Origin: Deltaproteobacteria bacterium
GTDB lineage: Bacteria; Desulfobacterota; GWC2-55-46; DRQE01
Length of the DNA stretch: 64,000 bases
NCBI GenBank assembly: GCA_029858205.1
Contig: JAOUFM010000006.1
Coordinates: 6,094 to 70,093 of the forward strand
Direction of reading: 5' to 3'
Shown here: piece after piece, positions 6,743 through 45,070 of the stretch
How positions within the stretch are numbered: position 1 is the first letter of the stretch
Layout: each line of letters begins with the position of its first letter
The notes under the pieces: generated by a model
The model's input: the letters and a program-made list of their open reading frames with translations, nothing else
Told to the model about the DNA's origin: nothing
Databases searched by the model: none
Made by a program: the position numbers and the translations under genes

Positions 6743-7355
6743 TTTTTCTGGCTATTTTAAACTCCTCTTCCGTCATATTGGCGCCAATGGCAACGCGTCT
6801 GGCAGTATCGACCGTTATAAGGTCGCCCGGCGAATGCGTATCGGTATTTACGATAAGACCGACACCGTGCTTTCTTGCGGCTGCCGCCACGTGGCCGTTT
6901 GTGAGGCTGTGGCCTTTTCTGGAGGTTATCTCGAAATATACGCCTGCCTTTGCCGCAAGCACAGCGTCTTCGGCGCTAACGAGCCCCGGATGCGCGAGTA
7001 TGTCCACCCCTGCCCTTATGGCAGCACTGTTGGTTCCGGCCTCCACAGGCTCTACAATTGTCTCTCCGTGGCAAACGACTATTTTTGCGCCAAGCTTACG
7101 TGCCCTGGCTGCAAGCGGCCCTATGGCCTCCGGGGCAACGTGCGTTATCTCAACGCCAGGGACGACCTTTACCCTGCCGCCTTTGTATGATGCCGTGAAG
7201 CGAAGCGTCTGCTCTATTACTTCTTCCATATTGGATTCATCCACATGGTCGGTGATTGCAAGCGCCCTGTACCCTGCGGCAGCGGCCCTGGCCGCGAGCT
7301 CGGAGGCAATGAGCTCGCCGTCCGAGTTAAAGGTGTGCGTGTGAAAATCTATCAT
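6708..7355 (-). CDS. PHP-domain phosphoesterase (histidinol-phosphatase-like)
   Basis: MIDFHTHTFNSDG...ITDHVD...HSPGDL is a PHP metal-binding His/Asp pattern. Confidence 0.6.
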   Translation of the reverse strand: MIDFHTHTFNSDGELIASELAARAAAAGYRALAITDHVDESNMEEVIEQTLRFTASYKGGRVKVVPGVEITHVAPEAIGPLAARARKLGAKIVVCHGETIVEPVEAGTNSAAIRAGVDILAHPGLVSAEDAVLAAKAGVYFEITSRKGHSLTNGHVAAAARKHGVGLIVNTDTHSPGDLITVDTARRVAIGANMTEEEFKIARKNAETLLEKILG

Positions 7356-8908
7356 GCGCCTCCGCTTGAGGCGAAGTCGGTTGCCGAGATATGGCTCATG
7401 AAGGCCTTGAGCACCTTTATGATGCTCTCCTTCTGGTCCGTGCCGCCCTTTAACACGTTTAACTCGTCCGAGGGCTTCATGGCCGCAAGACGCTTGAAGT
7501 TCGCAGTCTGTTCGGCCGATATATCGCTGTTTGCGACAGCGACGTTTAATACCGGCACCCGCCTGTTCGTTACGATGCGTTCCTTGAACTTGTTCATGTC
7601 ACCGAATGTGGCGGTATTCTCGTCCATGAGTATTATCGCGCCGATAAGGTTCGGATAGAACGTTATCATCAGCGGCACCATCGCGAGGTTGCACGGCACG
7701 GAGTAAAAGGCGATATCCAAGTCTCCGTAGACCCTTATGGCCCCTATCTCGCCGAGTATGAAGTCCTCTATCTTCGAGCCGCCTTTAAGGTCCAACGGGC
7801 TTCTAAAGTCCGGAAGTTTCGAACACGCGGCCACGAAGTCCTTTGCAAGTGCCGGGGACGGAGATGCCACGAACACGCGGCCAAAGTTCACGTTCAGGTT
7901 CTCGCCCCACTTGCCTATGACCTGTTCCTTTATCCTCACGGCCTGTGCAGGAGTCACAATGCTAAGCTTGTCGGTATCAGGGCCGCCGGTGTCCTTTACC
8001 TCGGATAAGATATTTCTCTGTATAAGATTCCTTATGGTCGTGTATGCGTCGTAATCCGGGAAGGAGCAGTGGTCGACAAGCTCCTTTACCGTCGAGTAGT
8101 ACTTCGTAAGGAATATTATTTCTGAAATGGCCGGCTTTAGCCCCTTTGGAAGCGTTGCGGTGTCGACGTTAACCTTGATAAGGGAATTATCGCGCGGGAA
8201 CTTGTCTTTATCCCTCTCGAACTCATCGAAGAGCCTGGCGCCTTCCATTAGAAGGTTTCCTGTCGGCACGTCGATTTTTTGCGGCACGTTAACAGGCTCC
8301 GGCACGAACTCAAAGGCCCCTTTGGGCCACATGAAGAAGCGGTAGAGGGCCTTTTCCTTCTCGGCCTCGGCAACGGTAGCGTTAAACACCTGGCCGCCCT
8401 TCATGTATATCTTGCCGACGTGCTTGTCGCCCTGTATGGTAAGGACGCCTTCCTTCTGGTTAAAGTGCAATACCTGAAGAAGATCCACAAGCGACATCTG
8501 CGCCAGGTCTCCCCTGATGTGCCCTGCCGCGTCCGCGCCGGAAGCTATAAACATGCCCTGCTTTACTACGCCGTAGAGCTCGCCCCAGTGGAATGGACGT
8601 ACGAGTATCGTGTCAGTGCCAGGACGGTAGCCCTTTACGTCGGTCTGCTTGTCCGCTATGAAGACAAACGGCACGGACGCCGTCTTAGGGTTGCTTTTTA
8701 CCATCTGAAGGAGCCTGTCTGCGGTAACGCCTGCGATGTTTACGTCGCATATTATGACGCCAGGGGCACGCTTTATGACCTCTTCCATGGTCTTTGCGCC
8801 GTCATTCGTAACGACGTGCTCGAGGGCGTTTTCCTTTAGCCCTTTTGTAATGGAGGAGGTATCCTCGTCGTTTTTCAGCGCGAGCAGTATGTATTTGGTC
8901 TCGGCCAT
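7352..8908 (-). CDS. Receiver (REC) - PATAN/DUF4388 - C-terminal degenerate Ras-like (P-loop-less) domain protein
   Basis: N-terminal CheY-like fold (GVIICDVNIAG...FVFIADKQ). The central GDLAQMSLVDLLQVLHFNQKEGVLTI segment is the DUF4388/PATAN signature. The C-terminal ~200 aa resemble a small GTPase fold (DIAFYSVP..., ...NVAVANSD) but lack a GxxxxGK[ST] P-loop. Confidence 0.5.
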   Translation of the reverse strand: MAETKYILLALKNDEDTSSITKGLKENALEHVVTNDGAKTMEEVIKRAPGVIICDVNIAGVTADRLLQMVKSNPKTASVPFVFIADKQTDVKGYRPGTDTILVRPFHWGELYGVVKQGMFIASGADAAGHIRGDLAQMSLVDLLQVLHFNQKEGVLTIQGDKHVGKIYMKGGQVFNATVAEAEKEKALYRFFMWPKGAFEFVPEPVNVPQKIDVPTGNLLMEGARLFDEFERDKDKFPRDNSLIKVNVDTATLPKGLKPAISEIIFLTKYYSTVKELVDHCSFPDYDAYTTIRNLIQRNILSEVKDTGGPDTDKLSIVTPAQAVRIKEQVIGKWGENLNVNFGRVFVASPSPALAKDFVAACSKLPDFRSPLDLKGGSKIEDFILGEIGAIRVYGDLDIAFYSVPCNLAMVPLMITFYPNLIGAIILMDENTATFGDMNKFKERIVTNRRVPVLNVAVANSDISAEQTANFKRLAAMKPSDELNVLKGGTDQKESIIKVLKAFMSHISATDFASSGGA

Positions 8909-9966
8909 TAGAGCTGCTCCTGCAGATACATGTCTCTCTGGAACTTGGTGATAAGACCCTCGACGATATACGGGTTAGCAGTGTGGAAACAGTTATACGT
9001 CTCCCCCCAGCTCTCTTTGCATATAAGCGCATAAGCCGCGTGCTCGGTAAGGAAGAACGTAAAGAGCATCTCGGTTACTCGCGGGTCGTTTATGGTAATG
9101 GCAATGGCATTACGGATGTCGGCGTTCTTGTCGACGTGCTCGCCGACGAGAAAGACTTTTGTAGAGCTCCTGCCCATGTTCTTTATGGTCTTTAGTATCG
9201 GCAGGTCTGCGGATATGTTCTTTGCGCCTATGTAAAGCACGCCGCGCCTGTCGGGGTTTCGTATGATCTCTTTTATGATAGCGTCGTTGATGCGGCCGAT
9301 ATAGTCCATGTTAAAATCGCTATTGCCGCCGGCATCGAAGGTCTGGAAGTCGTAGCCCGAGAGGCTCCCGGAGGTAAGAAGCGCAACTACCTCCCAGAAG
9401 AGCTTTGTCTTTAGCTGCTTTTGCTCCCAAAACGATGTCTTTATCTCGTGGAGCCTTGTGGTGGCCATGTTAACGAGCTCGCCGTACCCGACCGAATCCT
9501 TCGGGAACGTGGACTGCGACACCACGACAGATGCATGCGGGTCGCCCTTGTGCGTGTAGGGCTCGAGCGCCTTGGTGAGCTTCTTTAGCGTTATCAGGGA
9601 GCCGAAGTAATCGGTATTGGGAAGCACCATCAGCACGCGCCGCTCATCGAGCTTTCCGGCAACGTCGCAGTTGCGGATTACCTTGATGACGATGTCGGAA
9701 ACTATCTTCATGAAGGACTCGAGCTCCGCGCCCTCGGCCTTTCTCGCGCCGCTAGCGAAGCTGTCTACCTGAAGAAGTATCACCGAAAACGACATGCCGT
9801 AGCGCTCGGCCCTTACGCTCTCTATCTTTCCGTACTCGTTTACGAAGAAAGAGTCGTAGATGCGCCCTTCGATGCTCTTGGTCATTTCCTCGAGCCTCGA
9901 TGGCTTTGACGCTGCGGCCTCTTCGGCCTCGGAAAGTTTTTCGAAATCTACGAAATTATCGGACAT
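8908..9966 (-). CDS. Degenerate (catalytically inactive) GGDEF-like domain protein with an uncharacterized C-terminal domain
   Basis: RAERYGMSFSVILLQVDSF...KLDERRVLMVLP follows the GGDEF-domain skeleton (RxGxxFSxxxxDxDxF...RxGGxEFxxLLP) with the GG[DE]EF motif replaced by DERRV. The probable start is the internal MSDNFVDF, at about 9966. Confidence 0.5.
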   Translation of the reverse strand: MSDNFVDFEKLSEAEEAAASKPSRLEEMTKSIEGRIYDSFFVNEYGKIESVRAERYGMSFSVILLQVDSFASGARKAEGAELESFMKIVSDIVIKVIRNCDVAGKLDERRVLMVLPNTDYFGSLITLKKLTKALEPYTHKGDPHASVVVSQSTFPKDSVGYGELVNMATTRLHEIKTSFWEQKQLKTKLFWEVVALLTSGSLSGYDFQTFDAGGNSDFNMDYIGRINDAIIKEIIRNPDRRGVLYIGAKNISADLPILKTIKNMGRSSTKVFLVGEHVDKNADIRNAIAITINDPRVTEMLFTFFLTEHAAYALICKESWGETYNCFHTANPYIVEGLITKFQRDMYLQEQL

Positions 9967-9982: not shown

Positions 9983-10477
9983 CTACATCTTGTACTTCCC
10001 GAAAGATTCGGGAGTAAGGTTCTCAAGCGTTTCACCGCCGGCCTTAGAGCCGTCGGCGGTCTTCGGCGCCTTGGAATAATCCACCGAGCGCGACTTTTCT
10101 ATTATGGACGCCTCCACGAATATCGGCGACGACATCCGAAGCGCAAGCGCTATGGCATCGCTTGGCCTCGCGTCCACGGCTATGACAGCTCCGGCGTGGT
10201 TTAGATGTATTGTCGCGTAGTAGACGTTTTCCCTCAAGTCGTTTACCTCTATCCTCTTTAGCGAGACATCGACCTTATCGAGCACGTTCCTGAAAAGGTC
10301 GTGCGTCATCGGGCGCGTAAACTTCATCTTCTCTACCTCCGAGGCTATCGCGCTTGCCTCGAGCACGCCTATCCAGATGGGAAGCGTATTGTCGGAGTTT
10401 ACGTCCCTAAGTATCACTATCGGCGCATTTGTCATGGGGTCTACGGTAATGCCAGCCACGCGCATCTCTATAAACAC
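9983..10477 (-). CDS. Bifunctional nuclease family protein (BFN/DUF151)
   Basis: 164 aa; ...PIWIGVLEASAIA...ARPSDAIALALR... is typical of the DUF151 nuclease fold. Confidence 0.55.
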   Translation of the reverse strand: MFIEMRVAGITVDPMTNAPIVILRDVNSDNTLPIWIGVLEASAIASEVEKMKFTRPMTHDLFRNVLDKVDVSLKRIEVNDLRENVYYATIHLNHAGAVIAVDARPSDAIALALRMSSPIFVEASIIEKSRSVDYSKAPKTADGSKAGGETLENLTPESFGKYKM

Positions 10478-13359: not shown

Positions 13360-14050
13360 TTTTTAGTTTGCCCCTGCGGGGCGGCTTTGAAGTATTAGAC
13401 CTGCGAGTCAAAATGACAACTTCTTCGTCATTCCCGGCAGGCCGAGGGCCTGCACCCAAATGTAAAAACAATTCCTCCCACCACGTCATTCCCGCGCTCA
13501 TTTGGGCGGGAATCCAGCGTCTTACCTTATTTCCTCCCCTTTACAAGGGGCTGGGCTCCCGTTGCGCGAAGCCATTGCAACGGGAAGCGGAGGGGTAAAA
13601 TCTGTCTGTCATCCTGAACTTGATTCAGGATCCATTTTTAAAAAATCGAGATGCTGAAATGAATTCAGCATGACAAAAAGTTTCGTCATTCCCGCAGAAG
13701 CAGAAATCCATTTTTCTAAAAAAACTTTGCGCTGGCCGCGCGGCTTTGGCCGTAAGGTCTGCAAGGCTGCGACCCCGCCGCATAACCACCTCACGTATTG
13801 CCCCGCTTAAATCGCTTCGCTCATGCAACCCCGGCAATACGTCCGCCCCTTATGCGGCCCGCTTAAGCCTTGCCTGGCCTCACGGCCGGGGTTTGAAAAG
13901 AATCAAGCGCCGTAACCCCTCACCTTTATCCTCTCCCCAATGCGATTGGGGAGAGGAAATTCTTCTGCTGGTTCGGGTTTATAACCCGAACCGAAAAGTT
14001 TTGGTTCAAGTTGCAAACTTGAACCAGCGAAATAAAAGATGGGCAATGCC
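13360..14050. repeat. Mosaic block of short palindromic repeat modules (W-Y-Z-X), first copy
   Basis: Many perfect hairpins, including GCCCCTGCGGGGC, attcccgcgctcatttgggcgggaat, cctctccccaatgcgattggggagagg (12-bp stem) and ggttcgggtttataacccgaacc. Modules Y (~13640-13700), Z (~13768-13925) and X (~13960-14035) recur downstream at 14535-14890. Confidence 0.7.
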
Positions 14051-14092
14051 CGCCCTACGCCGAATAGATGGTGGGCCGTGCCACCCTACTAA

Positions 14093-14455
14093 CTACCCAT
14101 CTTTTACATTCTCAGCTTTCATTCTTTTAATTTTCTCGTCACGCCACGCCTCGTATTCTTCCCGTAATTTTGTCAAAACAACATAAGGGTCTTCGCTATA
14201 GTTTATACCTTTCACTATTGAACTTATACTAGCAGTAGTGCCAAAACCTTTTTCTGAAGCAATAAAGTAATTCCAGCCTAAATCAGTTCCAACCGATTCT
14301 ATATCATTTAAAACAAAAAAAATCAGGTCCAATGTTTGCCACATAGATTCAAGCACCTCAAGAGATCCGTACATTGATCCTCTTTTTTTAGATGCTTCCA
14401 TGATTCCATCTATAAGCCGTTTTATTTTAACTATTTTTTCTTCTGGCTCGCCCAC
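14093..14455 (-). CDS. Hypothetical protein, about 120 aa, in a low-GC island
   Basis: ORF with a GTG start 7 nt after AGAGGAG. GC is about 35% against about 60% flanking. It is bounded by the two repeat blocks. No recognisable motif. Confidence 0.4.
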   Translation of the reverse strand: MGEPEEKIVKIKRLIDGIMEASKKRGSMYGSLEVLESMWQTLDLIFFVLNDIESVGTDLGWNYFIASEKGFGTTASISSIVKGINYSEDPYVVLTKLREEYEAWRDEKIKRMKAENVKDG

Positions 14456-14529
14456 AAACAACTCCTCTAATAATTACCTTGTCCATTACAACACAGTCTT
14501 AACAACTGGGGTGGCACCACCTAAAACTT

Positions 14530-14900
14530 GGGTAGAAAACTTCTGCTGGTTCGGGTTTATAACCCGAACCGAAAAAGTTTTGGTTCAAGTTGCAAACTTG
14601 AACCAGCGAAAAATCGAGATGCTGAAATGAATTCAGCATGACAAAAAGTTTCGTCATTCCCGAGGTATTAATCGGGAATCCAGCGTCTTTGAAGCTTTAC
14701 CCCTGCGGGGCGGCTTTTGGGTATGAGGCCTGCAAGGCTGCGACCCCGCCGCACGGCCTCCTCGCATCAAACCCTGCCTTAAATCGCTGCGCTCATGCTC
14801 CCCCGGTTTGCCGCCCTCCTCCCGTGCGGCCCGCTTAAGCCTTGCATGGCCCCATACCCGGGGATTTGAAAAAATCAAGATGACATGCTTTATAAAACAC
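14530..14900. repeat. Mosaic block of short palindromic repeat modules (X-Y-W'-Z), second copy
   Basis: Modules X (14538-14608), Y (14609-14665) and Z (14728-14890) are 85-100% identical to the first copy but arranged in a different order. Confidence 0.7.
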
Positions 14901-14919
14901 TTTATGCGCCATGTCTTTT

Positions 14920-15567
14920 TTACCAAGCCTCGGCATCTTTCAGTCGCTCGACATCATAAGTTAATTGTTTAATCATTTGACGTACATACCAATAAAGACC
15001 TTCGACCTTTAGCAATATTGCATAGCCATGCGTTCTTCTGACTTTAATTATTGCGCCAGACATACCTTCAGGACGAATGTCAGTTTCCAATTGTTGGATA
15101 GCCAACTCGTCCATGCCTGGAGAGTCCCGATCAATTTTTAATGCAACAATTGCTCTATTACCAGGAAAAATTTCCTTTATTAAGTCAAAATCGAGCTTAG
15201 CCGCATTATGTATCAATGGATTCCTAAAAACGTGATAAATTATTCTTGCAGCATACTCTGGTGCTACTCCGCTTTCTTTGGGTCCCCCGTCCCAAGGAAA
15301 GTACTCTTTTACTACTTTTTTAAAGTTATCACTAGAATCCTGTTTTTGCTCTTGGTTATAAAAAACTACGGAACATCCTGCTATAACCGAAAAAAGAATT
15401 GTAGCAATTGAAAAATTTAATCCTGCTTTAATCCCATGCTCTGGCATTGGAAGTCGCAACATTGCATGTATATCTTTTAAAGAATTGTTCTCTATATTTC
15501 CCCTTATGAATTTTCTTAGTTTCTCTGAAATTTCAGGATTAATATTTAACTCCGAATAACTCACTTT
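14920..15567 (-). CDS. Hypothetical membrane-anchored protein, about 216 aa, in a low-GC island
   Basis: A GGAGG SD lies 3 nt before a GTG start (VSYSELNI...). There is one TM helix (LNFSIATILFSVIAGCSVVF). The sequence is AT-rich. No recognisable family. Confidence 0.4.
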   Translation of the reverse strand, partial: KVSYSELNINPEISEKLRKFIRGNIENNSLKDIHAMLRLPMPEHGIKAGLNFSIATILFSVIAGCSVVFYNQEQKQDSSDNFKKVVKEYFPWDGGPKESGVAPEYAARIIYHVFRNPLIHNAAKLDFDLIKEIFPGNRAIVALKIDRDSPGMDELAIQQLETDIRPEGMSGAIIKVRRTHGYAILLKVEGLYWYVRQMIKQLTYDVERLKDAEAW

Positions 15568-15728
15568 CCCTCCACCCCCAAAAACCGCCAAGTTTGCCGT
15601 CAGGCGAGGCAGCGGGCGGTTTTGCTCCGCAGGCGTATTCGACAATACGTCGAGGAAGTAAAAACGCCCGCTAACGACGCATCACGGCAAAATCGGCGGT
15701 TTCCTTTTGTCCAAAGGTTGCGCTTGCA

Positions 15729-16808
15729 TCAAACCGCCTTCGCCGCCTTCCTCTCCTCAACAAGCGATAAAACTTCTCTTACCATCCTCTCAACAATTTC
15801 GTCTTCCTTTATTTTCGCAACCACCTCGCCGCTGCGGTAGATGAGCGCAACACCGTCGCCCCCTGCCATTGCAACGTCGGCTTCTTTTGCCTCTCCGGGG
15901 CCGTTCACAACGCACCCCATTACTGCTACTGTGACGGGCTCTTCAACGTGCGAAAGGCGTTTTTCGATTTCAAGCGCGATTTTTTCAGAGTTAAGCCTTA
16001 TGCGGCCGCATGTGGGGCAGGAAATGATGTTTATGCCGCGCTTTCTGATTTCAAGGGCCTTTAGTATCTCCCACGCAACGCGCACCTCTTCGACCGGGTC
16101 TGCTGTAAGAGAGACCCGAAGTGTAGAGCCGATGCCCATATGTAAGAGCACTCCGATGCCGACCGAGGACTTGATTGTGCCGGAGAAAAGTGTTCCTGCC
16201 TCGGTGATGCCAAGGTGGAGAGGATAGTCCGATACCTTTGAGAACGCCTCGTACGCTGCTATTGTCGAGTTCACGTTTGAGGACTTAAGGGAGACTTTTA
16301 TATCGTGGAAGCCTTCATCTTCGAGAAGCTTTATATGGCGTAGCGCGCTCTCGACCATTGCCTCGGGTGTCGGGTGGCCGTACTTTTGGAGAATGTCCTT
16401 TTCTAAAGACCCTGAGTTAACGCCTATGCGTATGGGCGCTTTTCTGCTGTTTGCCGCGCGCGCGACCTCTCTAACCCTGTCCTTGCCGCCGATGTTACCG
16501 GGGTTAAGCCTTAGTCCGTCTGCGCCTGAATCTAGAGAAAGAAGCGCGAGTTTGTGGTCAAAATGAATGTCCGCGATGAGCGGTATGGAGATGTTCTTCT
16601 TTATTTCCTTTATCGCCTTTGCTGCTACCTCATCTGGCACTGCCACGCGCACTATTTCGCACCCTGCCTTTTCGAGCTTTAGGATTTGCTCGATAGTTGC
16701 GGCAGTGTTCGAGGTATCGGTGTTTGTCATGGACTGCACGCGCACGGGAGCGCCTCCGCCAACAGTAACCCCGCCTATGGAAATTTGTCTTGTTTTCCTC
16801 TTTGCCAT
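15729..16808 (-). CDS. ispG: 4-hydroxy-3-methylbut-2-en-1-yl diphosphate synthase (IspG/GcpE)
   Basis: Full-length GcpE: RQISIGGVTVGG...RVQSMTNT...IADIHFD, and a C-terminal CxxC...C cluster (ISCPTCGR). Confidence 0.95.
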   Translation of the reverse strand: MAKRKTRQISIGGVTVGGGAPVRVQSMTNTDTSNTAATIEQILKLEKAGCEIVRVAVPDEVAAKAIKEIKKNISIPLIADIHFDHKLALLSLDSGADGLRLNPGNIGGKDRVREVARAANSRKAPIRIGVNSGSLEKDILQKYGHPTPEAMVESALRHIKLLEDEGFHDIKVSLKSSNVNSTIAAYEAFSKVSDYPLHLGITEAGTLFSGTIKSSVGIGVLLHMGIGSTLRVSLTADPVEEVRVAWEILKALEIRKRGINIISCPTCGRIRLNSEKIALEIEKRLSHVEEPVTVAVMGCVVNGPGEAKEADVAMAGGDGVALIYRSGEVVAKIKEDEIVERMVREVLSLVEERKAAKAV

Positions 16809-16931: not shown

Positions 16932-18032
16932 GTGCCGATTATGATGTATATTTTAACAATGGAGAGAACCAAGCCATTTCTCGACGAGGCCACGCGGGAG
17001 GCCATCGAGGCAATACGCCATTCCGACCGTATCCTTGAGCTAAAGACCTTTAGCGAAATAGGCAAGGCGCTTACGTCCTCTGTCTCTCTAAACGAGGTCA
17101 TGGAGGTCGCGCTCGAGCAAATCACAAAACTTCTAAGGGCAAAGTACTGGTCGCTTCTCCTGATAGACGAGGTAGCAGGAGAACTGAAATTCGAGATAGC
17201 CGTTGGTGAAGGCGCTGACAAGCTAAAGGAAATGCGGCTAAAGCTTGGCGAAGGAATCGCCGGCTGGGTCGCGGAAAAAGGCGTTCCGCTGCTTGTCCCG
17301 GACGTTCGCAGAGACCCGAGGTTTACGAAAAAAGGCGACAATGTGACGAACTTCCAGACGCGCTCAATCATCTGCGTCCCTCTTGTCACAAAGGGCAAAA
17401 CACTTGGCGTAATAGAGCTTATAAACAAAGTCGAAGAGGACTTCTACGGCGAGCAGGACCTCTTTCTCCTCACCACCATGGCCGACTATACGGCCATAGC
17501 AATAGAGAACGCCCTGCTCTTCGACAAGATACAGCAATTGACCGTCACAGACGATTTGACGCAGCTTGGGAACTCGAGGTTCCTGCACACGTTCCTCGAC
17601 CAGGAAGTCGAGCGCGCAAAGCGCTACGACGAGCACATATCCATGATATTCATCGACATGGACCACTTTAAGCAGATAAACGACGTGCACGGCCATCTCT
17701 GCGGCAGCAAGATGCTAACCGAGTTCGCGGGCATATTGAAGCGGGTTTTGAGAAAGGTCGACATCGCGTGCCGCTACGGCGGTGACGAGTTCGTAATAGT
17801 TTTACCGGCCACGCCAAAGGACAAGGCAAAAATCGTTGCAGAAAAAATTCTCACCGCGTGCAACGAGCACGTGTTCCTCAAAGAAGAAGGCCTCAATAAA
17901 AAAATGACGGCCAGCATCGGGGTCGCTTCCTTTCCAGTGGACGCCAAAAGCAAGCTCGAACTCATACAGCTTGCCGACCATGCCATGTACCGCGTAAAGA
18001 ACCGATCGAGAAACGCGGTGGAGGTGGCGTAA
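16932..18032 (+). CDS. GAF-domain diguanylate cyclase (active GGDEF)
   Basis: GAF domain followed by a GGDEF domain with an intact RYGGDEF and an upstream RxxD-like element. The start may be the internal MERTK. Confidence 0.85.
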   Translation: MPIMMYILTMERTKPFLDEATREAIEAIRHSDRILELKTFSEIGKALTSSVSLNEVMEVALEQITKLLRAKYWSLLLIDEVAGELKFEIAVGEGADKLKEMRLKLGEGIAGWVAEKGVPLLVPDVRRDPRFTKKGDNVTNFQTRSIICVPLVTKGKTLGVIELINKVEEDFYGEQDLFLLTTMADYTAIAIENALLFDKIQQLTVTDDLTQLGNSRFLHTFLDQEVERAKRYDEHISMIFIDMDHFKQINDVHGHLCGSKMLTEFAGILKRVLRKVDIACRYGGDEFVIVLPATPKDKAKIVAEKILTACNEHVFLKEEGLNKKMTASIGVASFPVDAKSKLELIQLADHAMYRVKNRSRNAVEVA

Positions 18033-27822: not shown

Positions 27823-29145
27823 GTGGCAAAAAAAAGAAGAATCATCATCATGGGGGCCGCGGGGCGCGACTTTCATAACTTTAACGTCATCTATAAAAAC
27901 GACCAGACTGTAGAGGTCGTTGCCTTTACCGCAGCGCAAATCCCATACATAAGTAACCGCACGTATCCCCTTGCCGGAGATCTTTACCCGGACGGCATAC
28001 CGATATACCCCGAAGAACAGCTCCCGGAGCTTATAAAGCGCCTTAAGGCCGATGCCGTTGTGTTCTCGTACTCGGACATCTCGCACATAGACCTGATGCA
28101 CAAGGCCTCGGCAGTAATCGCGCTCGGCGCTGACTTTATCCTTCTTGGCTCGACAAGGACCATGCTAAAGTCCGTAAAGCCGGTGATATCCGTGTGCGCT
28201 GTGAGAACGGGCTCCGGGAAAAGCGGTGTTACGAAGCTTATCGTAAAAAGGCTCTCGACCCTCGGGCTAAAGACCGTGACGGTGCGCCACCCCATGCCCT
28301 ACGGAGATCTTAGAAAAGAACGCGTGCAGCGCTTTGCAACTACCGCTGATATGACGGAGGCCGGATGCACGCTCGAGGAAATGGAGGAGTACGAGCACCT
28401 GATAGAGGCCGGGATAGTCGTCTACGCAGGCGTTGATTACGCGGCCATACTAAAAGAGGCCGAACAAGAAGCTGACGTGATAGTGTGGGACGGCGGCAAT
28501 AACGACTTTCCGTTCTTCGAGCCGTCATTGGAGATTGTGGTTACTGACCCGCTTCGCCCCGGGCACGAGATAACGTATCATCCGGGCGAGGTAAACCTAA
28601 GGCGCGCAGACGTCATTATTATAAACAAGGTGAACACAGCGTTAACTACCGACGCCGAGACCGTAAGAAAAAACGCCGCTACCGTCAACCCGAAGGCCGT
28701 TATAATAAGTACCGAGTCAGTCGTGACCGTCGACGGCGCGCTCGACATAGCCGGGAAAAAGGCCGTTATCATCGAGGACGGCCCGACCCTCACCCACGGC
28801 GAGATGACCTACGGCGCCGGAATAATTGCGGCAAAGGAAATGAAGGCAGTGCCTGTAGATGCCAGAGAGTACGCCGTCGGCGCGATAAAGGACGTATTCG
28901 CGAAGTATCCGGCCCTCGATTCCGTAATACCGGCCATGGGGTACTCGCCGGAACAGGTCAAGGATCTCGAGACAAGCGTAAACAATACGCCTGCCGACAT
29001 TGTCATGATAGCGACCCCGGTGGACCTATCGAGAATAATAAAGTTCAACAAGCCAGCGGTACGCGTAAGGTACGAGGTAAAGGAAACCTCGGAGCCCGGG
29101 CTTGGCGGCATCGTAGCGGACTTTATCGCATCGTTTAAGAGCTAA
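27823..29145 (+). CDS. P-loop NTPase with an N-terminal Rossmann-like domain (cyclic 2,3-diphosphoglycerate synthetase-like / DUF1611-related)
   Basis: RIIIMGAAGRDFHNF (Rossmann-like), a variant Walker A (CAVRTGSGKSGVT) and later DGGNNDFPF. The family call is from memory only. Confidence 0.4.
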   Translation: MAKKRRIIIMGAAGRDFHNFNVIYKNDQTVEVVAFTAAQIPYISNRTYPLAGDLYPDGIPIYPEEQLPELIKRLKADAVVFSYSDISHIDLMHKASAVIALGADFILLGSTRTMLKSVKPVISVCAVRTGSGKSGVTKLIVKRLSTLGLKTVTVRHPMPYGDLRKERVQRFATTADMTEAGCTLEEMEEYEHLIEAGIVVYAGVDYAAILKEAEQEADVIVWDGGNNDFPFFEPSLEIVVTDPLRPGHEITYHPGEVNLRRADVIIINKVNTALTTDAETVRKNAATVNPKAVIISTESVVTVDGALDIAGKKAVIIEDGPTLTHGEMTYGAGIIAAKEMKAVPVDAREYAVGAIKDVFAKYPALDSVIPAMGYSPEQVKDLETSVNNTPADIVMIATPVDLSRIIKFNKPAVRVRYEVKETSEPGLGGIVADFIASFKS

Positions 29146-29146
29146 A

Positions 29147-29992
29147 ATGCTAAAGCGCGTTCTTAACTACTTCGCCAAGCGCTACATTGCCGGAGATACG
29201 CGCGAGGATGCCGTTGAGGCCGTGCGCGCGCTAAACGGCCAAAACGTGCTTGGCATAATCGACCATCTTGGCGAAAACGTCACAAAAAAAGAAGACGCTG
29301 ATAAAAGTGTTGCCGAATATGTCTCGCTTCTTCGAGCAATAGAAAAATCCGGCGTAAAAAGCACTGTATCGCTAAAGCTCACTCACCTCGGGCTCGATAT
29401 CGGAGACAGCCTTGCCATGGAAAATCTCGAGCTGATCCTTTCGAAGGCCGGGACAAACTTCGTGCGTATTGACATGGAATCATCGGTCTATACTGGACGC
29501 ACAATCGAGATTTTTCTTAAACTGTGCGAAAGACACCCTAACCTCGGCATTGCCGTGCAAGCATATCTTAAACAGAGCGAGCATGACATCGACATTCTCA
29601 TAAAGCACAACTCAAGCGTAAGGCTCGTAAAGGGCGCGTACAAGGAGCCTTTGGATATCGCCTTTGCCGATAAAACCGATACCGACAAAAACTTCCTCAA
29701 ACTGATGAAGAAACTTTTAAAGGCAAAGGGCAGGACGGCAATTGCGACACATGATGAGAAAATAATAACCGAGGCAATAAGGTTTTGCGAAGAAGAAAGC
29801 ATACCAAAAGACACATTCGACTTCGAGATGCTCCTTGGCATCAAGCGCAAACTGCAAAAGGAACTTGCTTCCCGTGGTTTTAGCGTTCGCGTCTACGTGC
29901 CCTACGGAACAGAGTGGCTGCCCTATATGCTAAGGCGCCTTACCGAGAGAAAAGAAAATCTCTGGTTCGTGCTAAAGAATATCGTGGGATAA
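29147..29992 (+). CDS. Proline dehydrogenase (monofunctional PutA-like)
   Basis: ...VRLVKGAYKEP... and ...LLGIKRKLQ... are hallmark proline dehydrogenase barrel motifs; 281 aa. Confidence 0.75.
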   Translation: MLKRVLNYFAKRYIAGDTREDAVEAVRALNGQNVLGIIDHLGENVTKKEDADKSVAEYVSLLRAIEKSGVKSTVSLKLTHLGLDIGDSLAMENLELILSKAGTNFVRIDMESSVYTGRTIEIFLKLCERHPNLGIAVQAYLKQSEHDIDILIKHNSSVRLVKGAYKEPLDIAFADKTDTDKNFLKLMKKLLKAKGRTAIATHDEKIITEAIRFCEEESIPKDTFDFEMLLGIKRKLQKELASRGFSVRVYVPYGTEWLPYMLRRLTERKENLWFVLKNIVG

Positions 29993-29994
29993 GC

Positions 29995-32247
29995 TCATGA
30001 CGGCTCGGATGCCTCTACAAGCGGCCTTGTAAGCGCCCTCTCAAGAATGTCAGCGTAGGTTTCGCCGTCGCCGGGAAAGCATGCGTACCCGTAGAACATG
30101 CCTGCCTTGAACTCGCGTGGCGCATCCGACAATATATCGCGGTTAAAAACATCGACAACGCGCCTGTCGGTTTCAAGAAAAAGTATGCCGACTGTGTCGT
30201 CATCGAGCATGGCAACGGAATCGAATATGCGGATCTTGCCTCTTACGTACGTAAGAAGCCTCTTTATAAATTCCTTTTTTGCAAACCCCTTTATGCCGGT
30301 GAGCTCTCCGGCCCTTGCCGTAACGAACACAAACTGTTTGCCAAACCTTGCAGCTCTCTTTAGTTCCTCCTCCACCCTTCTCTCGAAGAGCCCGGGGGTT
30401 ACGATATCCCATGCGTCTTTTGTCTCGGCGCTGTCGCGTATGGCCGCGAGCACGCGCTCGACGTATGCAACGAACCTGGCTATGACTTCGGTGTCGTTTT
30501 TGGAGAACGGCTGCGCGTAAGGGCTTTCCTCGTCAAAGCGGTTAAAGAGCGATATAAACCCCTCGACATTCCCGTCGGTAAGGATTGGAAAGGTAAGCAT
30601 GCCTCTGATTACGGGGTTAGAGTCTTCGGAGAACTCTCTACGAACCGGCTCCTTTCTTCGCTGGACTTCCTTTACGGTCTCGTCCTCGAGCGGCAGAAAC
30701 GACTCCTTCTTTTTCATGTTCTCGATGCCGAAGGTGGCGACGCGCTCGAACCCCGCGTCAGGCGAACTGCTCTTGATACGCAGCACCGCGCCCTCGGCAT
30801 TTAGAATGTCCACGGCAGCTATCGTTATCATTGGATAGAGCTTTTCTGTATCGCGTATGGCAATCAGCTTTAACCCGGCCTCGTCGGCTGCGACAAGACG
30901 CTTGGATTTTGCCATGTCCTCGTCGTTACGCCTGTTGACGTAGATGCTTTCGGAAAGAAGCGCTGTCATCTCCTTTAAAAACGCCTCATTATATTTCGAC
31001 AACCCGCGTTTAGATGATATCTCGGCAACGAACACGCCTACGGTCTGTTCCTTTGCTGTCATAGGAATGGCCATCAAAACGCGCTTTAGCCTTTTTTCCG
31101 GCAGCCTGTCGACAAGAACCACTTCCTTCATTGCCTCGATTGCCGCGCCTACAACGCCCTCACCGGAGGCAAAGCTCACGTGCCCGGTCGAAGGCGGTGT
31201 CTTTGCGCTGGAAGAATAAATAACGAGCCGCTTCATGTCCTCGTTATAAAGGTATATCGTGCACGTAAGCCCGGGGATGAGCTCCGAAAGCTTTCTGCAC
31301 ACGGTATTAAGGCGCGTGTGAAGCGGCTTATGGTCCGACATGCTGAACTCGAGCTTTTTCCAGAGGTCGAACTTCGCCGCCTCTATCCTCATCTTCTCGA
31401 ACTCTCCGGCGCGGTTTATGACCTCTGCCGCTAGCCCGGAAAGGTTCTTTAGCAGTTCCATGTCGGCATCGGTGAAGGTCTTCTTCGAGCCCGATGAGTT
31501 GACGTTCAAAACGCCTATGACGCCGCTTTCTATAGTAAGAGGCACACATATCGCGCTCGATGCGCCGCGCCTTGTGCCGAGGCGGCCAAACTCCTCTTCC
31601 TTTGCCCTGCCGTTTATCAGTATGGGCCTGCCGTCCTTGGCGACCTTTCCGGAAACGCCATCGCCGAGCTTTACGTTTACCTTACGGATGATTTCCTCAT
31701 CCATCCCTCTTGCAACTTCGATCTTGAGTGCCCCCTCGGCCTTGTCAACGAGCATTATGGAACCGGCATCCGCGCCGCTTGTCTCTATTGCAATGTCAAG
31801 AAGGCTTCCAAGGAGCTCGTCTCTATCGCTTGTGAGCTTTACGCCGTTCACTATCTCGCGTAGCGGCCCCAGGTAATTTGGCGAGGCATGTCCCGCAACA
31901 GCTCCTCTTACACCCCAGAGGAGGCGCGCGCTCAAGGCAGATAGCTTCTCGACATCGTCGAACTCGGAGGAATCGAGGAACTTGGCGGTTGCCGCGTCGT
32001 CCACCGCGTTTATGATGACGTCAAGAGAATCTATGGCCTTTATATCCTCGAGCTCATAGGTAACGCTTATGCCAAGCTTCTTCGATATCCTGTAGCCAAG
32101 CTCCATGAGCTTATAGAGCATGGCATCGGGGTTCGGGTCGGCAATAAGCACGATGCGGTTACCTTTGTCCTTCAGGAGGTCCGGTAGAAGAGAAAGCGCT
32201 TCTTTATTGGCGCCGATGATGGCGATGTTCTTTTTATTCGAAGCCAT
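29995..32247 (-). CDS. Multi-GAF-domain protein with a C-terminal degenerate GGDEF-like domain
   Basis: An N-terminal Rossmann-like segment and at least two GAF-like regions (SIMLVDKAEGALKIEVARG...). The C-terminus RFGKQFVFVTARAGEL...MLDDDTVGILFLETD follows the GGDEF skeleton but lacks GG[DE]EF. Confidence 0.6.
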   Translation of the reverse strand: MASNKKNIAIIGANKEALSLLPDLLKDKGNRIVLIADPNPDAMLYKLMELGYRISKKLGISVTYELEDIKAIDSLDVIINAVDDAATAKFLDSSEFDDVEKLSALSARLLWGVRGAVAGHASPNYLGPLREIVNGVKLTSDRDELLGSLLDIAIETSGADAGSIMLVDKAEGALKIEVARGMDEEIIRKVNVKLGDGVSGKVAKDGRPILINGRAKEEEFGRLGTRRGASSAICVPLTIESGVIGVLNVNSSGSKKTFTDADMELLKNLSGLAAEVINRAGEFEKMRIEAAKFDLWKKLEFSMSDHKPLHTRLNTVCRKLSELIPGLTCTIYLYNEDMKRLVIYSSSAKTPPSTGHVSFASGEGVVGAAIEAMKEVVLVDRLPEKRLKRVLMAIPMTAKEQTVGVFVAEISSKRGLSKYNEAFLKEMTALLSESIYVNRRNDEDMAKSKRLVAADEAGLKLIAIRDTEKLYPMITIAAVDILNAEGAVLRIKSSSPDAGFERVATFGIENMKKKESFLPLEDETVKEVQRRKEPVRREFSEDSNPVIRGMLTFPILTDGNVEGFISLFNRFDEESPYAQPFSKNDTEVIARFVAYVERVLAAIRDSAETKDAWDIVTPGLFERRVEEELKRAARFGKQFVFVTARAGELTGIKGFAKKEFIKRLLTYVRGKIRIFDSVAMLDDDTVGILFLETDRRVVDVFNRDILSDAPREFKAGMFYGYACFPGDGETYADILERALTRPLVEASEPS

Positions 32248-32251
32248 TGTC

Positions 32252-32662
32252 TTAGCCTATCCTCTCGAGTATGCCGAGGTCGATTAATTTTCTTATAAGC
32301 GCGGCCTTTTCTATATCTGCGGTTTCTATGGCCGCGGCCTGCGTATCCGGCGCTGTAGTCTCGTTAAACCTTCTGGCAGCCTCTTTCATGAGCCAGTCGA
32401 AGTCCTCGATGATGGTCTCCTCTTTGGGAAGCTCTCCGGTGGCAACGTCGAATTCGCCTTCCTTCCATCCAAGGAGCCTGGATAGCGCGTCAACGCCCGT
32501 GAAGCCGCGGTAATCGGCGTGCACGATGTTGCCATCCTTGAAGTACACGTTACCGTACCCGTGCTCTGACCCAAGATGCACGGCAACGGTCTTGCCTTCG
32601 GCATGGAGAATCTGAAAGATGTCCTGAAGATTGAGATCTTTTAAACGTCCCTTTACGCTCAT
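32252..32662 (-). CDS. Stand-alone PATAN/DUF4388 domain protein
   Basis: GRLKDLNLQDIFQILHAEGKTVAVHL is the same signature as in the 7352-8908 protein; 136 aa. Confidence 0.6.
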   Translation of the reverse strand: MSVKGRLKDLNLQDIFQILHAEGKTVAVHLGSEHGYGNVYFKDGNIVHADYRGFTGVDALSRLLGWKEGEFDVATGELPKEETIIEDFDWLMKEAARRFNETTAPDTQAAAIETADIEKAALIRKLIDLGILERIG

Positions 32663-32814
32663 AGGCGCTCCTGTTCCCCGCTATATTCAATTTTACGAAC
32701 AAAAAAAGAGGCTGTTAAAGCTGCTTAAAGAACGTATAGTTACAGTATAGCAGAGTGCTGCGTATGGTCAAAAGACCGGCAAGGTGAAGTTCGGGTAGTT
32801 TTGGTGTTTTTTTA

Positions 32815-32843
32815 AGTATAGCAAAAATAGGCGGTTATGTCAA
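32815..32843 (-). promoter_or_regulatory. Sigma70-like promoter upstream of the PATAN gene
   Basis: On the minus strand: TTGACA - 17 nt - TATACT. Confidence 0.35.
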
Positions 32844-32889
32844 AGAAGGGCGGGGATGGCAACGATGTGTCACCATTATCAGGTAGGCC

Positions 32890-34146
32890 CTATTCCCTTA
32901 CCTGCCCGTCTCCGTACACGATGAACTTTTGTGTTGTGAGGCCTTCGAGGCCCATGGGGCCGTAGGCGTGTATCTTGGTCGTAGAGATGCCGATTTCAGC
33001 GCCAAGGCCAAACTGGTGTCCGTCGCTAAAGCGCGTTGAGGCATTCACCATAACACTCGATGAATTGACGGTATCGATAAAGCGCTGGGCATTGGTATAG
33101 TTCTCGGTGATAATGGATTCCGTATGCAAAGACCCGTAATTCTCAATATGTTCGATAGCTTCGTCCATATCCTTAACAATCTTTATAGCTATTATAAGGT
33201 CAAGGTACTCTGCTCCCCAGTCCTCTTCCTTTGCAGCGGTGATGTCCCTTAATATCTTCCTCGTAGCCTCGCACCCGCGCATCTCAACGCCTGCTTCTTT
33301 GTAGCGGCCGTGTATCAGGGGCAAAAACTCCTTTGCCACCCCCTCGTGCACAAGTAACGTCTCCATGGCATTACACACCCCCGGACGCTGCACCTTGGCG
33401 TTGAATGCGATGTTCACGGCCTTGTCCATGTCTGCAGCCTTGTCCACAAACACGTGGCAGACGCCCTTATAGTGCTTTATAACTGGTATCTTAGAGTTCT
33501 CGACTGTAAAGCGTATTAGCCCCTCGCCGCCCCTGGGGATAATAAGGTCTATGTATTCCTCGAGCTTTAGCATCGCAAGCACAGCCTCCCGCTCAACCGT
33601 TGGGATGACCTGCACTGCAGCCTCCGGCACGCCTGTTAAAGCGCATGCAGCGGAAAGGCATTCTGCTATGGCCCGGTTCGAGTGTATGGCCTCGCTTCCG
33701 CCCCTAAGTATTACGGCATTGCCTGACTTAAGGCAAAGTCCTGCCGCATCTGCAGTGACATTTGGCCTTGACTCATAGATTATGCCGATCACTCCGAGCG
33801 GAATCCTCATGCGGCCGATTTTAAGGCCGTTTGGCCTCTTCCACATGGATGTCACCTCGCCTATAGGGTCAGGTAGAGCCGCAACCTCTCTTAGTCCGTC
33901 GGCCATGCCTTTTATGACCTTATCGGAAAGTGTCAAGCGGTCTATCATTGCCTTTGAAAGACCGTTTTTCTCGGCAGCTTCCAAATCCTTTTGGTTTTCT
34001 TTTTTTAAGGTATTGGCTCGTTTTAAAAGCTCATCCGCCATGGCATGAAGCGCCTTGTTCTTTATATCGGTAGAGAGCCTGGCAACGAGCCTTGATGCTG
34101 CCCGTGCCTCTCTTGCTATTTTCTTTACGAGTTCGGCTGTGGACAT
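32890..34146 (-). CDS. proA: Gamma-glutamyl phosphate reductase
   Basis: Full-length ProA (418 aa) with an ALDH-like fold and a catalytic Cys ([12 protein letters not shown]). Confidence 0.95.
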
Positions 34147-43256: not shown

Positions 43257-43699
43257 AGAGGATAGGTCTTTTGACTCAGGCAAAACCGTCAAAAAGCGCA
43301 CATCGCAGCCAGACATCCGCTTACTCTGTACATTTTGAACGCGAAGAAGTCTTATACCGGTCCGGAAACAATCGGGCCGTAAGCTTGAATAAGTACAATT
43401 TGCGACAAAGGGCGTCGACATTGTCTAGAACCTCCATGACAGAAGCCATACTTAATAAGGTGTACACCTCAACCGGTTTTCTTAAACGGATATTTCTCGT
43501 GCTCGCAATCCCGGCAGCGAGAAAGATAGTCTGCTATGCCCGTGAGGCGCACCGCGTGCTGCTGCCCTACTTTACCCCTGCTCTAAATGCTCTCGAGCGG
43601 ACGGCCAACAAAGTAAGCATCTGGATATCCAGGCTCATAAGAAAAATACGGATAGCCCTTCGCCCGGTTTCAGAGTACCTAAGGGGACGCTTCCTGAAG

Positions 43700-45070
43700 A
43701 TGAACATGGCGAAGAAGATGCTGCTGGCGTATTTTCCGCTTGCCGTGCTCCTGATACTTATTTCCGTCTTCACGCTCTTTAGCTTCAAACGCATCAACGC
43801 CGTCATGAACTCGATGCTATACGCCGACGTGGCCGTCATAGAAGTTACCAACATGCTTACAGATACGCTCATAGACCAGGAGACCTACGGCCACCGCTAC
43901 CTGATACTTAAAAACCCCGACATGCTAAAGATATACAAGGAGAAGAGCGAAGAGTTCGCCAACACGGTGAGTGTGATGGCCATGATACCGGACTCATCGA
44001 AATTGCCAATCAAAGAACTCAGCACGCTGCACCACGAGTACGACAAGTTTTTCAAGAACATCTTTCACGCGTCTGAAAACGGATTGCCCACGGCAACGTT
44101 TGAGAGAAAAGCCGACTTGAAACGCGACGAGCTTGTTGTGCTGCTAAAGAAACTTACCGCCGACACCTTGAAATCCCAGAACGCGAAGATCCAGGGCATT
44201 GCCGACTTCGGCTCCAACGCCTTTGTTCTCACCGCAGGCATAGGCATACTCGGCCTTATAATAGGCATCGGCGCTGCGCTCTATATAACCAAGAACATCT
44301 CTACGTCCATAGAACAGCTCAAAATCGGCACCAGGAACGTCGCAAACGGCAACTTCCTCGACATTCCCAAGGTCGAGAGCGAGGACGAACTCGGCGACCT
44401 TTCGGTCGCGTTCATGGATATGGCCAACCGGCTAAAGCGGCTCGAAGAGATGTACCTCGACGCAAGTCCGCTTACGAGGCTTCCCGGCGGCATAGCCATC
44501 GAGAACGTGCTCAAAAAACGCGTTGAAGCGAACCTGCCGGTGGCATTTTGCTTCGCCGACATAGACAACTTCAAGGCCTACAACGACAGGCACGGATACG
44601 CAAAAGGAAGCGAACTCATCCTGGCGGTCTCCAAGATAATGAAGGATGTTATACGAGACTTCGGCACAAGCGAGGATTTCCTCGGTCATATAGGCGGCGA
44701 CGACTTCGTTATGATAACCACGCCGGCGCGCCACGACATGCTTTGCACCAAGATAATAGATAAGTTTGACATGGCAATTCCTTTCTTCTATACTGAAGAG
44801 GAAGTGAAACAAGGCTACATAGACGGCAAGTCGCGCCAGGGGCAGAAGATGAAGTTCCCTCTGGCAACGTTATCCATAGCGGTAGTAACCAACAAGCTTC
44901 GCCGCATCACAAACCACATCGAGTACGGCGAGATAGCGGCGGAATTGAAGGAATTCGCAAAGAGCATCCCGAAGAGCGCGTACGTCGTCGACAAGCGCAC
45001 AAACGAAAACATAGGCTACGCGCCGACCGCGCCGCATAACGTCAATTGGCAAAAAGAAAGGACTACATGA
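43700..45070 (+). CDS. Membrane sensor with periplasmic domain, HAMP and a GGDEF domain (motif variant GGDDF)
   Basis: TM1 (LLAYFPLAVLLILISVFTLFSF), a ~170-aa periplasmic region, TM2, HAMP (SEDELGDLSVAFMDMANRL), then ...FADIDNFKAYNDRHGYAKGSELI...HIGGDDFVMI. The start is taken at the ATG 14 nt after AAGGGGA. The ORF-track start at 43271 is a TTG. Confidence 0.75.
   Translation: MNMAKKMLLAYFPLAVLLILISVFTLFSFKRINAVMNSMLYADVAVIEVTNMLTDTLIDQETYGHRYLILKNPDMLKIYKEKSEEFANTVSVMAMIPDSSKLPIKELSTLHHEYDKFFKNIFHASENGLPTATFERKADLKRDELVVLLKKLTADTLKSQNAKIQGIADFGSNAFVLTAGIGILGLIIGIGAALYITKNISTSIEQLKIGTRNVANGNFLDIPKVESEDELGDLSVAFMDMANRLKRLEEMYLDASPLTRLPGGIAIENVLKKRVEANLPVAFCFADIDNFKAYNDRHGYAKGSELILAVSKIMKDVIRDFGTSEDFLGHIGGDDFVMITTPARHDMLCTKIIDKFDMAIPFFYTEEEVKQGYIDGKSRQGQKMKFPLATLSIAVVTNKLRRITNHIEYGEIAAELKEFAKSIPKSAYVVDKRTNENIGYAPTAPHNVNWQKERTT

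Follow-up and report, generated by a model that had tools for sequence, protein, structure and literature searches.

Paired PATAN and degenerate GGDEF genes conserved in an uncultured lineage of Thermodesulfobacteriota

A PATAN gene and a degenerate GGDEF sensor gene form a conserved, operon-like pair

A 64,000-nucleotide (nt) stretch from a Deltaproteobacteria bacterium (contig JAOUFM010000006.1, positions 6,094 to 70,093), referred to here as the window, was found to carry on its reverse strand a gene for a stand-alone 136-amino acid (aa) PATAN/DUF4388 protein (32252..32662, reverse strand) directly followed by a gene for a 750-aa cytoplasmic multi-domain sensor (29995..32247, reverse strand). 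The sensor combines a Rossmann-like N-terminal domain, three GAF domains and a degenerate GGDEF domain, and the two genes stay together in every related locus that could be scored. A second pair of a PATAN gene and a degenerate GGDEF gene lies elsewhere in the window. The initial annotation had read these pairs as a sign of conserved functional coupling. That reading stands in so far as operon-like units occur twice and are kept within one lineage; it fails as a general property of PATAN proteins.

The coordinates that had been given for both open reading frames (ORFs) are correct, but the gap between them is not 5 nt: the junction reads TAA-GACA-ATG, with the PATAN gene upstream, which leaves 4 nt. 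A Shine-Dalgarno sequence (AGGAG) lies 7 nt ahead of the ATG of the PATAN gene, and a leader of 227 nt separates this gene from proA. The leader contains three sigma-70-like promoter matches on the reverse strand (32690..32843), located at 32843-32815 (11/12 with TG), 32771-32744 and 32718-32690. These sites are matches to the sigma-70 consensus alone, and the scan that detected them gave 5 sites versus 1.7 expected in shuffles. An Rfam scan of positions 32600-32950 matched no family, and thus no riboswitch, for cyclic di-GMP (c-di-GMP) or otherwise, was found in the leader.

Conservation of the pair was followed in a locus scan with one genome per GTDB species, which returned 59 loci. One of them (L059) was left out because it matches at the GAF level alone and is no orthologue, and three more (L012, L035 and L038) were left out because they start at or inside the GAF gene and have no DNA upstream of it. 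In all 55 scorable loci, a PATAN orthologue is encoded directly upstream of the sensor gene on the same strand. The gap between the two has a median of 6 nt and is at most 20 nt in 41 of the 55 loci, with several 4-nt overlaps, and the pair has stayed intact while the sensor orthologues diverged to 37–51% identity. The positive genomes all belong to one group of metagenome-assembled genomes (MAGs) labeled Deltaproteobacteria/Thermodesulfobacteriota, uncultured bacteria that resemble sulfate reducers. This conservation across genomes rules out chance adjacency, and the earlier judgment that the pairing is unlikely to be coincidental is upheld. In a single locus of the 55 (L058, 5593-5991), the reading frame of the PATAN orthologue is interrupted by a TAG stop, which could be a sequencing error or mark a pseudogene.

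At its downstream end, the 750-aa gene meets a convergent ProDH gene, and the ends of the two are only 2 nt apart (29992-29995). No intrinsic terminator or terminator-like hairpin was found between them, so the two transcripts would need either to overlap or to end inside the opposing gene.

The GGDEF domain of the sensor has lost the catalytic motif and kept the I-site

The C-terminus of the 750-aa protein (residues 613-745, 30013..30411, reverse strand) was identified as a degenerate GGDEF-fold domain. Because the sequence of the 750-aa protein by itself gave no GGDEF match in Pfam (even at E<=1) or in NCBIfam, this assignment required a profile of the family and a modeled structure. The profile (A2), built from the C-termini of 28 orthologues, retrieved 6d9m from the PDB as its best match with an E-value of 8.3e-11, and 17 of its 20 top matches were GGDEF proteins. 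Taken singly, 26 of the 28 orthologues match PF00990, and several orthologues have a precomputed match to this family. An AlphaFold2 (AF2) model of residues 613-750 had a predicted local distance difference test (pLDDT) score of 85.8, and the top 50 PDB matches that Foldseek returned for it were all GGDEF domains (best E 2e-6, template modeling [TM] scores 0.6–0.7). On the strength of the orthologue profile, the PF00990 matches and the modeled structure, we consider the predicted GGDEF fold sound.

The initial annotation had described this C-terminus as a GGDEF fold without the GG[DE]EF motif, and profile, model and alignment all agree with that description. The string it singled out, MLDDDTVGILF, is also the right one: in the alignment to 6d9m, DDDTV (residues 682-686, 30190..30204, reverse strand) occupies the position of GGDEF, where the family consensus is NEETF. 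The GG[DE]EF motif is present in none of 51 orthologues, and both glycines are lost in all of them. When the family profile is aligned to 6d9m, "deetl" falls over GGDEF, and the DxD metal site and the N/D guanine-binding residues are lost as well; the segment corresponding to DxDxFKxxND...GD reads "atvriaglkeasaekk" (HMMER), with R645 (47/51 orthologues) in place of the first Asp. Having lost GG[DE]EF together with the residues that bind metal and GTP, the 750-aa protein does not qualify as a diguanylate cyclase.

The protein does have the RxxD motif of an I-site, RIFD (R673-D676, 30220..30231, reverse strand), which stands five residues ahead of the position once held by GGDEF and is matched to R-E-V-D in the alignment with the 6d9m cyclase. 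Outside the near-invariant residues of this site, the GGDEF domain of the family averages about 35% identity. R673 is found in 50 of 51 orthologues, F675 and D676 are found in 51 of 51, and the spacing is canonical. With its RxxD I-site kept, the 750-aa protein is most likely a c-di-GMP receptor.

Some GGDEF-EAL proteins have degenerate GGDEF domains that bind GTP. The domain described here might similarly bind a nucleotide such as GTP at its former active site and serve as a nucleotide sensor, and both the intact fold (AF2, Foldseek) and the retained lysine of FK in the DxDxFK segment (GLK) are compatible with such a role. However, the metal-binding Asp pair and the guanine-binding Asn/Asp are replaced or deleted, and the glycines are gone from all 51 orthologues, so we regard a GTP sensor as very improbable.

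A second pair appears to have arisen independently

The second pair lies at 7352-9966 on the reverse strand. Its first gene (8908-9966, reverse strand) is annotated as encoding 352 aa, while the longest ORF starts at 10035 and would encode 375 aa. The protein has a sub-threshold Pfam match to GGDEF (E 8e-4), with LDE-RR in place of GGDEF and RNCD as its RxxD motif. Its 116 homologues show L[DE][DE]-[RK][RQ] in the place of GGDEF, and RxxD retains both its R and its D in 116/116. A lysine or arginine is also kept about 27–28 positions past RxxD in this family, and some homologues have an N-terminal REC domain. Retention of RxxD in both GGDEF families fits the suggestion, made in the initial annotation, of a c-di-GMP effector.

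The second gene (7352-8908, reverse strand) encodes a 518-aa protein comprising REC (E 3e-5), PATAN (DUF4388, E 2.7e-24), a winged-helix-like segment and a small-GTPase-like domain, and its ATG overlaps the stop of the 352-aa gene (TAATG). In profile searches, the C-terminal 270 residues (7352-8164, reverse strand), which cover the winged-helix-like and Arf/Sar-like parts, matched Arf/Sar small GTPases weakly (E ~2e-3) with about 50 consistent matches. No P-loop was recognizable in the Arf/Sar-like domain, and it may therefore be a pseudo-GTPase. PATAN has been associated with MglA/MglB-type systems (PMC4316618), and the predicted GTPase-like C-terminus fits that association. The second pair is kept in five of the five loci checked (the window, L060, L061, L144 and L145). 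In other genomes of the lineage, PilO and PilQ secretin genes are found 3–5 kb upstream of it (L060, 1-2079; L144, 1-1206); where L060 and L144 have these type IV pilus genes, the window has glutamate dehydrogenase and other genes.

Several features set the two pairs apart. Their PATAN domains share only 25 bits, and thousands of other PATAN clusters are closer to the 136-aa protein. The A2 profile scores the second GGDEF family at no more than 47.7 bits, compared with 39–45 bits for active cyclases. Moreover, the gene order is opposite, with PATAN first in the pair at 29995-32662 and GGDEF first in the pair at 7352-9966. An origin of both pairs by duplication of one ancestral pair is ruled out by the distance between the PATAN domains, the distance between the GGDEF domains and the inverted order. 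The same three features suggest that PATAN and a degenerate GGDEF domain were brought together on two separate occasions, and the earlier claim of two independent loci pairing PATAN with an inactive GGDEF is thus confirmed. In our view, nothing speaks more strongly for a functional link than this apparent twofold origin.

The window contains four GGDEF-family genes among its ~55 genes, and a rough calculation puts the probability that both PATAN genes adjoin one of them by chance at about 2%. One of the two unpaired members is a canonical GAF-GGDEF cyclase (16932-18032, forward strand) with a GGDEF motif and an RKVD I-site. Since this enzyme is predicted to be active, the organism should be able to make c-di-GMP and to have c-di-GMP signaling, and the enzyme is a candidate source of the signal. 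Its GAF domain makes it the only other protein of the window to match the 750-aa protein (phmmer E 1.6e-15). The fourth GGDEF-family gene (43271-45070, forward strand) encodes a 599-aa HAMP protein whose match covers Pfam model positions 5-94 of 161. It has a non-canonical GGDDF motif with no RxxD before it, and it does not adjoin a PATAN gene.

Domain composition of the two partners

Roughly 60 full-length orthologues of the 750-aa protein were found, all of them from Deltaproteobacteria/Thermodesulfobacteriota MAGs. Within the family, conservation over short stretches is highest in the N-terminal domain (residues 1-125, 31873..32247, reverse strand), and all peptide patterns chosen for the locus scan come from it. 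The AF2 model of this domain (pLDDT 79) consists of alternating strands and helices, and its best Foldseek matches in the PDB are Gfo/Idh/MocA-type NAD(P) domains and a Rex-family repressor (E 1e-4 to 4e-3, TM ~0.5–0.6). At the sequence level, the matches of this domain are weak. The domain contains the motif IIGANKE[GA], whose loop G12-A-N14-K15-E-[GA] has an invariant Asn where GxGxxG/A has its middle Gly, and an invariant D37 stands directly past the predicted second strand (30-36). As modeled, the N-terminal domain is an NAD(P)-type Rossmann-like fold; nucleotide binding is possible, and the domain may provide a redox (NAD(H)) sensing input.

Pfam marks three GAF stretches in the protein. 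The first domain (residues ~135-287, 31387..31845, reverse strand) matches GAF_2 with an E-value of 8e-33 over residues 140-277. Comparison of its profile with the rest of the protein in hhalign located the second copy (residues ~300-445, 30913..31350, reverse strand; probability 95.3%, E 2e-8) and the third (residues ~455-605, 30433..30885, reverse strand; probability 95.0%, E 3.5e-8). The description of the 750-aa product as a multi-GAF protein is therefore correct. GAF1 evolves most slowly, with a mean distance of 0.44 among orthologues, compared with 0.66 for the N-terminal domain and 0.98 for the GGDEF domain, which evolves fastest.

The 136-aa protein was rightly annotated as a stand-alone PATAN/DUF4388 protein: it matches PF14332 with an E-value of 3.2e-19 (69.6 bits against a Pfam cut-off of 25), and the match runs over residues 4-101 (32360-32653, reverse strand) and model positions 1-120 of 122. 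What follows is a conserved helical C-terminal tail of 35 residues (102-136, 32255-32359, reverse strand) ending in ...LIDLGILERIG. As the protein consists of PATAN plus this tail and has no REC domain, it differs from PatA-type response regulators, which are defined by PATAN-REC. The helix that closes the tail, L[IF][DE]LGI[IL]E, also follows PATAN in unrelated proteins of other lineages, and because of this recurrence it may be a docking element. When the PATAN profile was searched against the PDB, only spurious Snf7 matches at E ~1e-3 were returned, and no solved PATAN structure was found.

A proposed mechanism and its alternatives

The explanation that we tentatively prefer, with a confidence somewhat short of even, is that the two genes form a co-transcribed, lineage-specific module of a c-di-GMP receptor and a PATAN adaptor. 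The 136-aa protein and the 750-aa sensor would be co-transcribed, probably translationally coupled, and cytoplasmic. The sensor would read c-di-GMP at the I-site of its dead GGDEF domain, as a receptor of the PelD, PopA and CdgA kind, and could take other inputs through its three GAF domains and the Rossmann-like, possibly NAD(H)-binding, N-terminal domain. The PATAN protein, made in step with the sensor, would be its partner or adaptor, such that a ligand bound to the 750-aa protein would alter the retention, release or placement of PATAN. From PATAN the signal would pass through protein-protein contact to a downstream machine; by analogy with other PATAN proteins, this might consist of the motor proteins of type IV pili or be a polarity switch of the MglA/MglB type. 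That the sensor binds c-di-GMP, that it forms a physical complex with PATAN and which machine receives the output are steps that we infer from the genes and domains described above.

Several observations weigh against this proposal. In an exploratory mirror-tree analysis, for which shared phylogeny and saturation of the GGDEF domain are confounders, PATAN covaried most closely with GAF1 (r 0.92) and GAF3 (0.90) and least with the GGDEF domain (0.67), so any contact may not involve the GGDEF domain. In addition, no residue clearly corresponds to the extra Arg of PelD: the best candidate, R699 at +23, occurs in 45 of 51 orthologues and is D in the 750-aa protein itself, which has R695, R696 and R703 instead. 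The mirror-tree result leans toward the main rival explanation, in which the operon is real and the dead GGDEF domain, which would not bind c-di-GMP, survives only as a remnant for structure or dimerization. Signaling would then start from ligands of the GAF and Rossmann-like domains, and PATAN would partner the GAF region, so that the presence of GGDEF would be incidental to a pairing of PATAN with a GAF sensor. Apart from having the lowest correlation with PATAN, the GGDEF domain is the fastest-evolving part of the protein, whereas the best-conserved short stretches lie in the N-terminal domain and the smallest mean distance belongs to GAF1; the lack of a conserved counterpart to the third Arg of PelD points the same way. 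A mere remnant is, however, hard to reconcile with the near-invariant R673, F675 and D676, which would call for an I-site ligand or a contact. The second pair has no GAF domain, yet it too combines PATAN with a dead GGDEF that retains RxxD. Weighing both sides, we consider the remnant explanation somewhat unlikely.

A further difficulty for the receptor-adaptor module is that both pairs sit inside larger syntenic blocks. The first is flanked by rplU-rpmA-obg-proB-proA and by the convergent ProDH operon, and the second lies within a block of BFN, the pair, PHP, PQQ and GH57 that is shared by all the loci checked. The conserved adjacency of both pairs is thus partly a matter of shared ancestry and inherited gene order. 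Carried to its end, this argument would make the adjacency nothing but inherited order, the genes having been juxtaposed once in the ancestor of the lineage and never split, without any functional link between them. Synteny of obg-proB-proA-PATAN-GAF...ProDH in most loci, and of the second block likewise, would be expected in that case, as would the confinement of the positive genomes to one lineage and the lack of enrichment in other PATAN subfamilies. It does not account well for the operon-tight gaps within the pair, since the neighboring spacers are looser (90–700 nt between proA and the PATAN gene, with insertions between the GAF gene and ProDH). Nor does it readily explain why the pair is intact despite the divergence of the sensor, or why non-paralogous parts came to be combined in this way twice, with the gene order reversed. 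Inheritance of gene order as the whole explanation therefore strikes us as quite improbable.

The last of the opposing observations concerns PATAN proteins at large. The 136-aa query matched 2,830 PATAN clusters at 50% identity, and the best 150 representatives of these were used as a diverse sample. Their Pfam partner domains include REC (56), Roadblock (14), HD_5 (6), HD (3) and MshEN (4), as well as CheB (4), FHA (3) and cNMP-binding domains (2). A fusion to GGDEF was detected in none of these best 150 of 2,830, either with Pfam or with our own GGDEF hidden Markov models (HMMs). Likewise, no GGDEF-like ORF was found within ~5 kb in any of 80 other metagenomic PATAN loci (430 kb), which span two architecture classes of ~229 aa and ~360 aa; as a positive control, the same HMMs recovered all GGDEF genes of the window. 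The co-occurrence analysis that the initial annotation had called for thus gives a divided answer, with the pairing conserved as operon-like units in the lineage (55/55 and 5/5 loci) and absent from the fusions and neighborhoods sampled elsewhere. In the samples analyzed, the pairing is lineage-restricted and there is no general PATAN-GGDEF module.

Other domains connected with c-di-GMP are nonetheless found repeatedly with PATAN. The partners in the sample above include MshEN, which binds c-di-GMP, and HD_5, to which HD-GYP phosphodiesterases belong, together with HD. PATAN-ComFB fusions have been reported (PMC12448109), as have co-transcription of the PatA-type gene slr1594 with an EAL gene and binding of PATAN to PilB1/PilC (bioRxiv 10.1101/2021.06.11.447907). 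In the literature on PATAN with GGDEF or c-di-GMP, we found no description of a pairing like the one reported here. A broader and more speculative idea is that PATAN is a dedicated output adaptor for c-di-GMP receptors, and that two unrelated dead-GGDEF receptors each recruited a PATAN of their own. We think it unlikely that this holds. If it did, it would reveal an unrecognized route from c-di-GMP to the cell-polarity or type IV pilus machinery, in which one receptor integrates GAF ligands and possibly NAD(H) while the other feeds a REC-PATAN-pseudo-GTPase. The PATAN-MshEN, PATAN-HD-GYP and PATAN-ComFB fusions would then represent variants of this route.

Other features of the window

On the far side of the convergent ProDH gene, a protein of 431–440 aa without a Pfam match is encoded at 27823-29145 on the forward strand, between an aminotransferase gene and ProDH, and it is kept beside ProDH in most of the related loci. 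The G+C content of the interval 14001-16000 is 0.438, compared with ~0.52 in the rest of the window.

Comparison with known systems

PATAN domains are widespread, and their biochemical role is poorly understood beyond a few cyanobacterial regulators. Degenerate GGDEF proteins, for their part, are established as c-di-GMP receptors, but as a class they are under-annotated. The two degenerate GGDEF domains described here are overlooked by public annotations, which list the proteins as "GAF domain-containing protein" and "hypothetical protein", and by Pfam. Two independent operons that each join PATAN to an RxxD-retaining dead GGDEF suggest a hypothesis in which c-di-GMP acts on processes under PATAN control, within the scope of the single uncultured lineage (Thermodesulfobacteriota) in which the pairing was found.

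The 750-aa protein invites comparison with PelD, whose degenerate GGDEF domain binds c-di-GMP through RxxD, with R395 of the Bacillus cereus protein, at +29 from the D, also being needed (PMC7112168). In both proteins a GAF domain lies directly upstream of the dead GGDEF and RxxD stands five residues before the former motif, and like PelD the 750-aa protein would be expected to act post-translationally, through binding rather than catalysis. Unlike PelD, it has no transmembrane segments and begins with a soluble Rossmann-like domain, it has three GAF domains, and the third Arg is not clearly conserved. Its genomic neighbors are proA, ProDH and housekeeping genes instead of pel genes, and its partner would be PATAN instead of a polysaccharide synthase. 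Past the shared domains, no sequence relationship between the two proteins was seen.

PopA of Caulobacter and SgmT of Myxococcus are scaffolds in which a degenerate GGDEF domain acts in a c-di-GMP-dependent manner. In Bdellovibrio, CdgA is a c-di-GMP receptor with a degenerate GGDEF (GVNEF) that belongs to a RomR/TPR/MglA polar hub (PMC3983030). What these proteins share with the sensor proposed here is a degenerate GGDEF that works through protein partners tied to polarity or type IV pili, and PATAN proteins have also been tied to MglA/MglB and to pilus motors (PMC4316618; bioRxiv 10.1101/2021.06.11.447907). The partner differs, being PATAN here and RomR/TPR or REC there.

Among PATAN proteins, the cyanobacterial regulators PixG, PixE and PatA are of the PATAN-REC type, with PATAN serving as a protein-interaction module (bioRxiv 10.1101/2021.06.11.447907). 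They have PATAN (PF14332) in common with the proteins studied here, and the slr1594-EAL co-transcript hints at a c-di-GMP link on their side as well. The 136-aa protein differs from them in having no REC domain, so it cannot be phosphorylated and would need to receive its input from the neighboring sensor. The 518-aa protein does have REC, placed N-terminal to PATAN, and adds a GTPase-like domain. The fusions of PATAN with ComFB (PMC12448109), MshEN and HD(-GYP-type) domains resemble both pairs in joining PATAN to a domain for cyclic-dinucleotide reception or turnover; they are single polypeptides with other c-di-GMP domains, in contrast to the operons with a degenerate GGDEF seen here. Set beside these systems, the pairing is best described as a variation on the degenerate-GGDEF receptor theme with PATAN as the partner, conserved, seemingly twice-evolved and lineage-restricted.

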